Assembly (NCBI GenBank): GCA_010093705.1
Contig: MU006113.1
Coordinates: 119,165-183,164 of the forward strand
Source: Patellaria atrata CBS 101060
Lineage: Eukaryota
DNA length: 64,000 nucleotides
Direction: 5' to 3'
Shown here piece by piece: positions 15,015-17,502 of this stretch. A program made the position numbers and the translations under genes. The notes under the pieces are model-generated. The model was not told the DNA's origin. It searched no databases and was given only the letters and a program-made list of their open reading frames with translations. Within the stretch, counting starts at the first letter, position 1; every line of letters starts with the position of its first letter.

Positions 15015-17502
15015 CTACCAGCGACTGTTACGGATCGGTGCGGAGTTGGAGCCAGAGTAGCCTTGAGTGATTTAGTAAGATGTTAGGTATCAGTGAACGA
15101 GTGAACGACAACTTACCTCCACCACCACCACGTCCTCCACGGCCTCCTCCACGGCCGCCTCCCCAGCGATTGCCACCTCCACCTCCTCCATAACGAGCCA
15201 TCTCAGCCAGACGTGGATCAATCTGCTGCTTCGATTCAGCGAGGACGGAAACAAGATCACGGGCCTGCTTAGAATCTACAAAATGGTCAGTCTCATTTTC
15301 AGGACAGATAGTCTTCTTACACTTACTTTCAGTAGTGAAGAACGTAATGGCAGTCCCTTTAGAACCAGCACGCCCTGTTCTTCCGATACGGTGAACGTAA
15401 TCTTCGGAATTGTTGGGATAGTCATAGTTCAACACATGCGTGATATTGCGAACATCTTGAATAACTTATGTTAGCATTTCAGAAGAAAAGGGTAAAACGA
15501 TCATTTCGATCGCGTGATCTGGAGCATGTCGCTGCAGTGATCTCTGTGCGCTAGCTTTGGGCCTATCATGGCAGCAGAGTCCAGTAGGTGACTATTAGAT
15601 TCTCTTCACAGATAAGGGATCCTTGGGAATGTTACTTGAGCACGTCAAGAATATGCTACTCACGTCTCTACCGGTCATTCCTGGTAGAGAAGTAACTACG
15701 AGCGAAGCGAGCTTCACCACAGCAAACACCCAAGGATCCTAGGAAGGATAAGAGAACGCTAAGAAGCCCTGGACAAGGTCATGAATACGGAGTAAGCGCA
15801 CAAGCGCAGAGAGCAGAGCATCACTTCAGTCACGCAATTACGAAAGGGGAACATATGAAAGGGACGAAAAGGAGGGAAATAGAGATGCGGGACAAATGCA
15901 ATCATACCAATACCGCGGGATGCAACGTCAGTTGCAACCATGATGGGCGATTTCCCCGTTTTAAATTCGTTGAGCACCCAGTCACGCTCATTTTGTTGCT
16001 TGTCTCCGTGAATGGCTATGAAGATGTTAGCGAGGAGAATGACAGCATTTTGGATAAGATTTGCTTACAGAGTGCTGGCCAACCATCTTGGCGAAGATAT
16101 CTTGTGATTTCATCTGCTACACGTTTAGTACCTGTGAAAATCAGGATCTTGTTGTTTTTGTCTTCCATAATGCGTTCCAAATGTTTGGACATCCGGTCGC
16201 GCTTTTCAAAGTCAGTTACGACTTCTACTACTTGCGTGATACGATGATTGGCAGAGAGATCCATGGAACCAATGTTGACTTGGATAAAGTCCTGTTGATA
16301 GTCTGAAGCCAGCTGGCGGACTTCCTTTGGCCAAGTAGCGGACCACATACAAGTTTGACGGTCGGGACGAATTTGTCCAATGATCTTCCTAATCTGCGGC
16401 TCGAATCCCATATCCAACATGCGATCAGCTTCATCTAGAACAAGATACGTGACACGTCGGAGGTTAGTCTTTCCTGATTCTAGCATATCAATCAAACGTC
16501 CGGGGGTGGCAATGCAGACTTCAACACCACGAGCGAGATCGCGGATTTGTGCACCTTTCGGAACACCGCCATATACGCAAGTGTTGCGAATTCTTGAGGA
16601 CTTGCCAAATTTGCTAATTTCCTGTTGGATTTGGACTGCTAATTCACGAGTAGGTGCGAGAATCAGTACGATCGGTCCATCACCAGGTGCAAGGAGAGGT
16701 TGGGCGTTAATGTGGACGATGGCTGGAAGGCAGTAGGTCAAGGTCTTTCCCGAGCCAGTTTCAGCGATACCAACAACGTCACGTCCAGACAAAGCCATAG
16801 GCCAACCTTGAGACTGAATGGCTGTCGGTTTCTCGAACCCTTGAGCTTTTACCTCGCTCATGACATACGAGGGAAATCCTGCCTCATCAAAGGTTGTTAC
16901 AGGCTTGGGAACATTTCGCCCTGTAATGGTCATTTGGTTCTGTTTGCGGAATGCGTCTACCTCTGCCTGTGTTCGAGCTGCAACTGCTGGATCCTCTTTG
17001 TAGAACGACTTTTCGAATTTTGGGAGCGTGTTCAGATCTGTAAAGTATTAGCAATTTGATCGGACAAAAGCTTTACAACAATGGATTCTTACCGAAATTC
17101 TGTTTCTGTAGACCAGCGCCGAGGTTAGACATCCTGTCACCTCCGCCGCCTCCATAACTACCACCACCATAGCCGCCACCGTATCCGTTTGTGCCATTAG
17201 AGTAATTGTTTGAATAGCCATTGCTTCCACCGTTGTTACCACCGTAACTATATCATGTTAGATACAGATTCAGATGAAATAGAAGTCGTGAATGGGATTG
17301 GAAGGGTGCGAAAGACATGTGCAGATAATGATATGAAACAGGATGCTGCTTATGCCTAGACCATAGGGTCATACCCGTTGGTATAGTGGCCGGATGAGCC
17401 ATAATAGCTGTAGCTGCAACCCTCATTACCGTACCCATTAGAGTAGCCATTGCTGCCGCCGTGACCGCCGCCACGAGAACCGTAGCCGTTCCCGTAAGAC
17501 AT
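15015..17502 (-). CDS. DBP2: ATP-dependent DEAD-box RNA helicase Dbp2 (p68/DDX5 ortholog)
   Basis: Q motif (GFEKPTAIQ), [41 protein letters not shown] and an RGG tail are all present. Multi-exon, including a long intron at 15907-15456 inside motif V (RGI-G|AT-V). Confidence 0.97.

Follow-up and report, generated by a model that had tools for sequence, protein, structure and literature searches.

A DBP2-type helicase gene with one long intron

The window analysed here, the whole 64,000-nt stretch of Patellaria atrata DNA, carries a DEAD-box helicase gene of the DBP2/DDX5 type on its minus strand (17502-15015); all features described below lie on that strand and are given in window positions from their 5′ end. 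The rebuilt gene model runs from an ATG at 17502 to a TAG stop at 15017-15015, and its seven exons encode 565 aa; the protein is rich in G, Y and N at its N-terminus and ends in an RGG tail. When exon 3 was compared with solved structures, the top match was yeast Dbp2 (8ark, E 1.9e-166), followed by DDX17 and DDX5. On the evidence of this sequence comparison, the gene is a DBP2/DDX5 orthologue.

Intron 4 (15907-15456) is 452 nt long and in phase 1, by far the longest intron of the gene, the other five measuring 51-127 nt. It interrupts the codon G|AT between ...ATDVASRGI and DVRNITH..., and motif VI (HRIGRTGR) is encoded by the exon that follows directly. This position before motif VI fits that expected for the DBP2/DDX5 intron of S. 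cerevisiae, S. pombe and humans. The intron opens with the 5′ splice site GTATGA (15907-15902), followed by a pyrimidine-rich stretch (15900-15838, 79% C+T) that is mostly unpaired in the MFE fold, and closes with the branch site CTAAC (15474-15470, branch A at 15471), located 15 nt before the AAG at 15458-15456. Retention of intron 4 would also lead to an early stop.

A predicted long-range helix begins at an internal AG of intron 4

Intron 4 contains 23 internal AGs, so that the mere presence of an AG, or of a GT, is unremarkable, but the AG at 15740-15739 has the most pyrimidine-rich upstream 19-mer of all (tract at 15758-15741, C+T 0.79), making it a candidate alternative 3′ splice site. 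A long-range helix, referred to here as P1, has the G of this AG in its outermost pair, and in it the 5′ arm GGAUCCUUGGG (15739-15729) pairs with the 3′ arm CCCAAGGAUCC (15627-15617). The two arms, 11 nt each and 101 nt apart, are 100% complementary, with a duplex energy of -20.1 kcal/mol, and the helix is found in both the MFE and the centroid folds at a mean pair probability of 0.99. An earlier, sequence-only reading of this DNA had put forward the same perfect 11-bp stem, together with the limits of the intron, a pyrimidine tract with a TAG ending at 15739 and a GTGAGT donor from 15663, and each of these coordinates and sequences proved correct. Perfect Watson-Crick stems of at least 11 bp arose in 5 of 300 dinucleotide shuffles of intron 4 (~2%), and the fold of the intron as a whole was better than that of 100 out of 100 shuffles (z -3.11).

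P1 is part of a larger rod that spans roughly intron positions 63-410 and leaves only the ends of the intron free. Part of the pyrimidine tract (15757-15750) pairs with a purine run at 15606-15599 (probability 0.98), GUCCAG at 15774-15769 pairs with CUGGAC at 15584-15579 to form helix P0 (probability 0.99), and UCAUG at 15784-15780 pairs with 15570-15566 in a lower helix (mean probability 0.85). Within the P1-enclosed domain lies the hairpin H2 (15690-15665; UCUCUACC at 15690-15683 with GGUAGAGA at 15672-15665; probability 0.99), which adjoins the candidate donor GTGAGT (15663-15658) and extends over its GUGA, so that the donor is partly covered.

Branch-site candidates for the internal AG differ from those used elsewhere in the gene. 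All six genuine introns carry CTRAY or CTAAA 10-15 nt before the AG. No CTRAY occurs in the 50 nt upstream of the internal AG, where the only candidates are ATGAC at a distance of 40 nt, separated from it by two further AGs, and CTTAG at 21 nt. The caveat already voiced in the sequence-only reading, that the branch site upstream of this acceptor is weak, is borne out. The branch-like AUGAC at 40 nt is itself overlapped by the UCAUG arm of the lower helix.

Other identities were considered for the intron RNA. A search of Rfam over 14000-18000 matched no family at E values up to 1. GUGAUG-like and CUGA motifs can be found by eye, at a spacing unlike that of C/D snoRNAs, and a snoRNA appears unlikely. 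A repeat or transposon origin was rejected; the intron sequence is not a repeat family, since no second copy occurs in the 64-kb window or in 80 fetched loci.

A P1-like helix is predicted in the orthologous introns of three related fungi

Orthologous introns were compared in four species, namely the window and three related fungi (L001, L002 and L081). L001 and L002 came from a metagenome scan and were the only usable loci among the matches listed; of the 80 metagenome loci retained, most shared 34-47% identity with the query and probably represent DEAD-box genes of bacteria or paralogues, picked up by way of the word EADRMLDM. A further locus, L003 (61% identical), has no intron at the intron-4 site, and L004 was left out as its contig stops before the intron. 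In all three relatives an intron occurs at the same site and in the same phase, with lengths of 544 nt (L001), 464 nt (L002) and 466 nt (L081). All six bases of the 5′ splice site are the same in 4/4 species, the C+T share of the stretch past it is 0.62-0.79, and CTAAC stands 15-17 nt ahead of an AAG in every one.

Each intron was folded separately. A P1-like helix was predicted in 4/4 introns, with 11 bp in the window and 10-14 bp in the relatives, at mean pair probabilities of 0.99 (window), 0.97 (L001), 0.83-0.91 (L002) and 0.76-0.96 (L081). In each case P1 was the most probable central helix, and it closed a domain of 84-137 nt holding small hairpins. Between species, P1 pairs changed on both sides (G-C to A-U, U-A to A-U, and C-G to U-A), and the helix further shows compensated length changes and one or two G-U pairs, workable on the sense strand only. 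In the window, L001 and L002, P1 starts with the pair formed by the G of the AG; in L081 the AG reads GAG and lies two pairs inside a weak helix (-7.0 kcal/mol, with one A/C mismatch). Rods similar to that of the window were found in all three relatives. L001 has a counterpart of P0 (GUCCA/UGGAC, probability 0.97), the UCAUG/CAUGA helix is also present in L081, and at the place equivalent to H2, L002 has CUUGUACC/GGUACAAG, which differs by three both-sided changes.

Three of the four introns folded better than 99-100 of 100 shuffles, with z-scores of -3.1, -2.8 and -2.4, and the whole L081 intron was no stabler than its shuffles (-131.1 vs -127.1, sd 5.8). Comparison of the window, L001 and L002 introns by blastn returned no match. 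Global alignments of the introns score z 2.6-8.3 above shuffles, which points to residual homology; because the four introns are homologous, they are not independent samples. In MAFFT alignments of three or four introns the P1 arms fell out of register, and RNAalifold on the crude alignment recovered just four P1 pairs and three inner hairpins. A covariance model built from the window and L081 matched only its two training sequences, missing L001 and L002 even with filters off, and on L003 it gave one weak match (E 0.51) well outside the gene. The equivalence of the L001 and L002 helices is therefore drawn from the separate folds and from a shared CUUGG/CCAAG core. The apparent conservation of P1 is read from both-sided changes and G-U pairs across the folds of four sequences.

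The pyrimidine rank of the AG at the P1 base was 1/23 in the window, 2/29 in L001, 2/20 in L002 and 1/15 in L081, and past intron position 100 just 0.3-7.4% of positions in the four introns are equally pyrimidine-rich. We call an AG 'gated' if it follows a pyrimidine tract and its pairing begins a long-range helix of at least 10 bp as the outermost pair, using criteria that were fixed after the data were seen. A gated AG was found in 3/4 real introns, compared to 2, 5 and 4 per 200 shuffles and to 3 of 274 other 452-nt windows of the 64-kb stretch (~1%); L081 falls outside the strict definition because its AG lies two pairs inside the helix. The 5′ arm of P1 is purine-rich, so an AG there is likely by composition alone, and since part of the tract is one strand of a helix, its conservation could be explained without a role in splicing.

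Splicing to the P1-base AG would give an early stop in 3/3 introns translated (window, L001 and L002), with the predicted stop 10-23 codons past the AG. In L002, two branch-like motifs precede this AG, CTGAC by 37 nt and CTAAT by 32 nt. The sequence-only reading had called for a check on conservation of the stem, of its AG and GT and of the stop codon: a helix at or near the AG, with compensatory changes, is predicted in 4/4 species and an early stop in 3/3 translated, and a consensus-like donor was found in only 2/4. Two sequencing runs that cover the locus consist of DNA contigs, probably from the source assembly, and show no splice joints.

The candidate cassette donor differs between species

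The earlier reading had centred on a 75-nt poison cassette (15738-15664) between the internal AG and the GTGAGT donor. Translation confirmed that this candidate cassette carries a premature in-frame TAG (15670-15668), ahead of motif VI. Only two internal GTs in intron 4 combine R at +3 with G at +5. A consensus-like donor past the P1-base AG was found in 2/4 species, at +75 in the window and in L002 as GTATGC, 76 nt past the AG and directly after its H2. No internal GT of the L001 intron shows this combination of R and G; L081, whose central region aligns best with the window, has no such GT inside its P1-enclosed domain and reads GCGACT at the aligned donor spot. Weaker GTs can be seen by eye 82-108 nt downstream (GUUAGU in L081, GUUGGA and GUAUCU in L001). 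As a conserved device, the poison cassette is not supported by these sequences.

A candidate clamp over a decoy acceptor

We propose, at somewhat less than an even chance, that P1 clamps a decoy acceptor and that opening of P1 by Dbp2 would lead to unproductive splicing and negative feedback. In this model, P1 would act as a clamp that hides the internal AG from the spliceosome, and in this species the GTGAGT donor would likewise be buried, by H2. With the clamp closed, the strong branch site CTAAC would serve to remove the whole 452 nt. A DEAD-box protein may be able to unwind a helix as short as P1, with its 11-14 bp, and high Dbp2 activity would leave it open more often, shifting splicing to the internal AG. 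One predicted product joins the 5′ splice site to the 15739 site, with the rest of the intron retained; a second, expected here and in L002, is a cassette of about 75 nt. In both, translation would stop early, ahead of motif VI, and their loss through NMD would close a negative feedback loop. The comparison of the four introns partly supports a conserved clamp of this kind over a decoy acceptor, and a role for P1 as a sensor that limits the helicase's own production is plausible. The dosage of Dbp2/DDX5 matters in yeast, plants and human cancer, and a short, apparently conserved helix that a helicase could open and that buries an acceptor-like site in this gene of filamentous fungi makes the question of DBP2 feedback directly testable by experiment.

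The rod including P1 may instead be functional without any use of the internal AG and GT in splicing, a reading we hold to be possible, if doubtful. The rod could serve as a zipper or structural enhancer that helps the spliceosome with a 452-nt intron in a genome whose introns otherwise measure 50-130 nt, or hide another signal, and excess Dbp2 would melt it, leading to retention and decay or to intronic cleavage and polyadenylation as proposed for yeasts. The extent of the rod (~63-410 of the intron) and its likeness in all three relatives speak for such a role, as do the lower helices UCAUG/CAUGA and GUCCAG/CUGGAC that are common to relatives, and the early stop that a retained intron gives by itself. 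Further points in its favour are the lack of donor conservation and the weak branch site of the internal AG, together with precedents, as far as the accessible accounts go: S. cerevisiae DBP2 and S. pombe dbp2 are controlled via retention or decay of this intron, perhaps with intronic poly(A) sites, and zipper stems are documented as autoregulation targets for RPL7B (PMC12311795). What a role for the rod without use of the AG leaves unexplained is that the best or second-best interior tract and AG lie at the P1 base, or two pairs inside it, in 4/4 species, and that donors stand at 75 nt (window) and 76 nt (L002) next to a covarying hairpin. The structural distance from 5′ splice site to branch site is 8-22 nt, compared to 431-521 nt in linear sequence; 41, 61, 2 and 69 of 100 shuffles were as short for the respective introns, and since the distance is no shorter than in shuffles in 3/4 introns, a zipper property is not demonstrated. 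Motifs for Mmi1 (TNAAAC) number two in L001 and none in the window, L002 or L081, which argues against decay by that route. Even without use of the AG, the rod as a conserved structure would still be a candidate target for retention-type feedback.

That the intron has no function at all, and that a slowly decaying long intron simply keeps remnants of an ancestral inverted repeat among which coincidences of AG, tract and GT were picked post hoc, we judge unlikely. Such a history would be in keeping with the residual homology of introns from only four species, the post hoc criteria, the failure of the covariance model to carry over to L001 and L002, the unexceptional fold of L081, and the background rates of perfect 11-bp stems (~2% of shuffles) and gated AGs (~1% of ordinary windows). 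It sits poorly with an intron that stays at 452-544 nt at the same codon in 4/4 species beside neighbours of 51-127 nt, with a P1 that persists through compensatory and G-U changes though blastn similarity is gone, with folds better than 99-100 of 100 shuffles in 3/4 introns, and with the lack of any further intron copy in the window or the fetched loci. The strict cassette version, in which the 75-nt poison exon 15738-15664, looped out by the stem, is itself the conserved feedback device, is a subset of the clamp model and appears quite improbable. It draws on the good GTGAGT donor with the in-frame TAG, on the L002 GTATGC 76 nt past the P1-base AG and just after H2, and on plant DRH1, which according to the accessible text yields a cassette isoform beside an alternative-3′-site isoform (bioRxiv 10.64898/2026.01.23.701338). 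Against it stand the weak branch site, L001 without a consensus-like donor, and L081 with none in the P1-enclosed domain and GCGACT at the aligned spot.

Relation to known systems

Our literature search found no report of a structure, an alternative acceptor or a poison exon in a fungal DBP2 intron, and in two fungal structured-RNA screens there was no mention of DBP2, DDX5, DEAD or helicase. The comparisons that follow draw on the accessible parts of the sources.

S. cerevisiae DBP2 is reportedly autoregulated through its intron, a result credited to Barta and Iggo in EMBO J in 1995. The gene is orthologous to the one described here, its intron is likewise unusually long and lies toward the 3′ end, and the negative feedback depends on that intron. 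The outcome reported there is different, being inhibited splicing, retention, or premature termination or polyadenylation, and the accessible accounts describe neither an alternative acceptor nor a cassette. According to a citing paper, a helicase-dead mutant relieves retention, and the mechanism of the feedback was still called 'not fully understood' in a 2025 preprint.

In S. pombe, dbp2 intron 2 is bound by Mmi1 and promotes decay (Kilchert et al., 2015, PMC4695336). This S. pombe intron is inefficiently spliced and lowers the mRNA level; its position and length are described as conserved, and autoregulation was left open by the authors (PMC4695336). It differs from the intron described here in that it acts via TNAAAC and the exosome, and TNAAAC is absent from the window, L002 and L081 and occurs twice in L001. 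For Neurospora prd-1 (NCU07839), the accessible literature held only notes on expression and 3′-UTR poly(A) sites; prd-1 is absent from two supplements of PMC7746235. In yeast zipper stems and structural enhancers such as that of RPL7B (PMC12311795), a long-range intron helix similarly sets splicing, and autoregulation works by disturbing that helix. In PMC11162794, intronic structures hide the branch sites that precede poison exons; in the present intron, the branch candidate AUGAC falls within the UCAUG/CAUGA helix. In those two systems a sequence-specific protein or no known factor acts, whereas the effector proposed here is the gene's own helicase.

The closest likeness is to the plant 'DEAD' motif of DRH1/RH14 and RH46 (RNA Biol 2025, PMC12218528; bioRxiv 10.64898/2026.01.23.701338). 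In the accessible accounts of DRH1, the helicase opens a stem, which leads to unproductive splicing and feedback, with RT-PCR, NMD and helicase-mutant data (bioRxiv 10.64898/2026.01.23.701338; PMC12218528). There too the host gene encodes a DDX5/Dbp2-type helicase that ends in an RGG tail, a long intron houses the element, and the AG of an alternative 3′ splice site is at the base of the helix. The plant isoforms (alternative 3′ site, cassette and retention) carry premature stops, and their fungal counterparts are predicted only. The plant element is one hairpin of ~20 bp, in contrast to the fungal 10-14-bp helix, which closes a multi-hairpin domain of 84-137 nt within a larger rod. Covariation statistics for the plant motif come from 339 sequences, whereas the fungal helix is predicted from the folds of four sequences. 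The plant motif was called plant-specific by its authors, and its likeness to fungal P1 lies in the host gene, the intron setting and the proposed logic.

With no great confidence, we suggest that fungal and plant DDX5/Dbp2-family genes both gauge their own activity by means of a duplex within an intron, under which an alternative 3′ splice site is hidden. If so, the fungal 'dipstick' would be placed in a long intron whose conservation is reported to reach from yeast to human, and the autoregulation of DBP2, unexplained for 30 years, would gain P1 as a concrete RNA substrate. An element described as plant-specific would then be ancient or would have evolved twice, and a way of sensing so far demonstrated in plants only would extend to a second kingdom. 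The RGG tail, the specificity element in the plant system as far as its accessible account goes (bioRxiv 10.64898/2026.01.23.701338), is present in the protein encoded here.

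A DBP2 intron with an acceptor-like site at the base of a predicted helix

The minus-strand gene at 15015-17502 has seven exons and encodes a DBP2-type DEAD-box helicase of 565 aa, whose N-terminus is rich in G, Y and N and whose C-terminus is RGG-rich. Its identification as DBP2 in the sequence-only reading holds because exon 3 matches yeast Dbp2 best (8ark; E 1.9e-166), with DDX17 and DDX5 as the next matches. The fourth intron is 452 nt long (15907-15456), the other five being 51-127 nt, and interrupts a codon between ...ATDVASRGI and DVRNITH..., 5' of motif VI. Re-reading of the window sequence showed that all coordinates proposed for a poison exon in this intron were correct: a pyrimidine tract with a TAG ending at 15739 and GTGAGT from 15663 are both present, the cassette between them (15738-15664) has the claimed length of 75 nt with a 27-letter reading in translation, and the arms of the long-range helix P1 (15739-15729/15627-15617), 11 nt each and 101 nt apart, are perfectly complementary. 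The reservation about a weak branch site was also justified. Upstream of the internal AG there is only ATGAC, 40 nt away and separated from it by two further AGs, or CTTAG at 21 nt, whereas the six genuine introns of the gene have CTRAY or CTAAA 10-15 nt 5' of each AG, and this contrast counts against use of the internal AG.

In this single sequence, the features of the intron moderately exceed chance. A perfect stem of at least 11 bp arose in 5 of 300 dinucleotide shuffles, and P1 is common to the MFE and centroid folds with a pair probability of 0.99. Over its full length the intron folds into a long rod that is more stable than 100 of 100 shuffles (z -3.11). The internal AG ranks top of 23 for the pyrimidine content of its upstream 19-mer, and R at +3 together with G at +5 is found at just two internal GTs. 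In the predicted fold, some of the pyrimidine tract itself forms one side of a helix, and a hairpin, H2 (15690-15665), covers the candidate cassette donor (15663-15658).

Orthologous introns share a predicted central helix

One metagenome scan yielded two orthologues that could be used, L001 and L002, both with 86% identity across exon 3; a third, L081, came from one scan of a prokaryote genome collection (84% identical over a 60-aa query, 87% in local tblastn). The L081 locus (1712-3572) lies on a 5.8-Mb contig titled Trueperaceae bacterium MAG, yet carries an intron-bearing DBP2 with an 87% identical protein; the contig appears to be fungal, not bacterial, and the record mislabelled or contaminated. 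Long introns occupy the same codon and phase in L001 (544 nt), L002 (464 nt) and L081 (466 nt); in L003, which is more distantly related, the site is intron-less. Apart from their ends, the introns have diverged to the point that blastn gave no match between those of the window, L001 and L002, although global alignments scored z 2.6-8.3 above shuffles. The four introns are homologous and therefore not independent samples.

All four start with GTATGA (15902-15907 in the window) and end in AAG with CTAAC 15-17 nt upstream (15456-15474). These non-optimal ends are identical in type across the four species, the 3' splice site having no pyrimidine tract, yet a perfect CTAAC. A pyrimidine-rich tract follows the 5' splice site (15838-15900, minus strand; the first ~70 nt of the other introns), with a C+T share of 0.62-0.79 (L001 being C-rich, 59% C). 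It is mostly unpaired in the folds and could be a putative single-stranded loading or protein-binding platform.

When each intron was folded separately, every one was predicted to form a high-probability central long-range helix enclosing an 84-137-nt domain with two or three hairpins. P1 lies at intron positions 169-179/281-291 in the window, 208-220/358-371 in L001 (13 bp, one bulge), 153-167/271-285 in L002 (14 bp, two bulges) and 180-190/294-305 in L081 (10 bp, one bulge, one mismatch), with duplex energies of -20 to -7 kcal/mol. A YUGG/CCAA core is common to the apical ends, and the basal halves vary by both-sided changes, compensated length changes and G-U pairs whose counterparts on the opposite strand would be A/C mismatches. 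The outermost pair is the G of the AG in the window, L001 and L002; in L081 the AG, reading GAG, lies two pairs inside. By upstream pyrimidine content this AG ranks 1/23, 2/29, 2/20 and 1/15 among internal AGs (window, L001, L002, L081). A lower helix, UCAUG/CAUGA, is common to the window and L081, and another, GUCCAG/CUGGAC, to the window and L001. Fold z-scores were -3.1, -2.8 and -2.4 for three introns, and only about -0.7 for L081.

With criteria set post hoc, a pyrimidine-tract AG forming the outermost pair of a long-range helix of at least 10 bp occurred in 2/200, 5/200 and 4/200 shuffles of the window, L001 and L002 introns, and in 3/274 other 452-nt windows of the 64-kb window (26669-27120, 45201-45652 and 60117-60568, all plus strand). 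The 5' arm of P1 is purine-rich, making an AG there likely by composition. When trained on the window and L081, a covariance model missed both L001 and L002, also with its filters switched off, and MAFFT did not bring the P1 arms into register, so that P1 in L001 and L002 is judged equivalent from the separate folds, its position and a short core in common. The model also weakly matched L003 at 2520-2645 (12.1 bits, E 0.51), where a pyrimidine tract, UAG and short stem lie ~1.2 kb downstream of the tblastn match to this intron-less DBP2 relative; the model hit is probably due to chance.

A consensus-like cassette donor in two of four species

A consensus-like donor lies 75 nt 3' of the AG in the window and 76 nt in L002, each directly after H2, which covaries between the two. 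The L001 intron has no consensus-like donor after the AG, and in L081, whose central region aligns best to the window, the aligned donor bases read GCGACT. With this donor in only two of four species, the poison cassette does not stand as a conserved device; as written, it is probably lineage-limited at best.

A possible helicase-sensitive clamp

The proposal that Dbp2 senses its own level through this intron thus survives in part: P1 over an acceptor-like site is partly conserved in the separate folds, whereas the cassette is not. We tentatively favor, at somewhat below even odds, a model in which P1 would clamp an internal decoy acceptor, so that the full intron is removed via the strong CTAAC branch. 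At 10-14 bp, P1 falls within the DEAD-box unwinding range, quoted as 10-15 bp in a plant study (bioRxiv 10.64898/2026.01.23.701338). Excess Dbp2 could then open P1, so that the internal AG would be used as acceptor instead. In the three translated species (window, L001, L002), splicing to this AG leads to an early stop, and hence NMD and feedback on Dbp2 would be expected. The idea of such a conserved clamp, placed over an acceptor-like site, is reasonable as a hypothesis and open to test.

The main alternative, rather unlikely in our estimation, is that the rod is helicase-sensitive and its output is retention with decay or intronic polyadenylation, the AG and GT being incidental; such outcomes are discussed for the DBP2 of yeasts. 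In a test of whether the rod acts as a zipper, shuffles brought the intron ends together as well as the real introns did. A strictly conserved poison cassette, a subset of the favored clamp model, is improbable given its donor distribution, and that the intron has no function is unlikely.

The mechanism proposed in the sequence-only reading has already been demonstrated in plants, where helicase activity opens the DRH1 'DEAD' motif and shifts splicing towards PTC-bearing isoforms (PMC12218528; bioRxiv 10.64898/2026.01.23.701338); the authors describe the motif as plant-specific (bioRxiv 10.64898/2026.01.23.701338). The predicted fungal element differs from the plant motif in architecture and shares no demonstrated sequence relation with it. 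If true, a conserved clamp would be a fungal variant of a switch type now known in plants. As summarized in citing papers, S. cerevisiae DBP2 autoregulates through its own long intron, by a mechanism one of them still terms not fully understood. S. pombe dbp2 uses Mmi1 motifs (PMC4695336); such motifs are absent from the window intron. Our literature search found no paper in which the DBP2 intron of a fungus is described as containing a structure, an alternative acceptor or a poison exon.

Other features of the locus

Two 22-nt direct repeats with 73% similarity lie side by side in the 3' part of the window intron (15499-15543, plus-strand coordinates); both end in GTGATCT and pair in the rod with GUGAU/GCGUGA segments from the 5' part. 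On the minus strand, the branch-like word AUGACC occurs twice, at 15778-15784, before the 5' arm of helix P0 (15774-15769), and at 15672-15678 in the H2 loop; the latter copy reads AUGACCGG, an 8-mer tandemly duplicated at 280-300 of the L001 intron. Upstream on the same strand, at 18140-19060, lie ORF pieces of a neighboring gene (e.g., ...FVQQLADGSLPLENFKHYLIQDYLFL...), which we take to be typical of TenA/thiaminase-2-type proteins.
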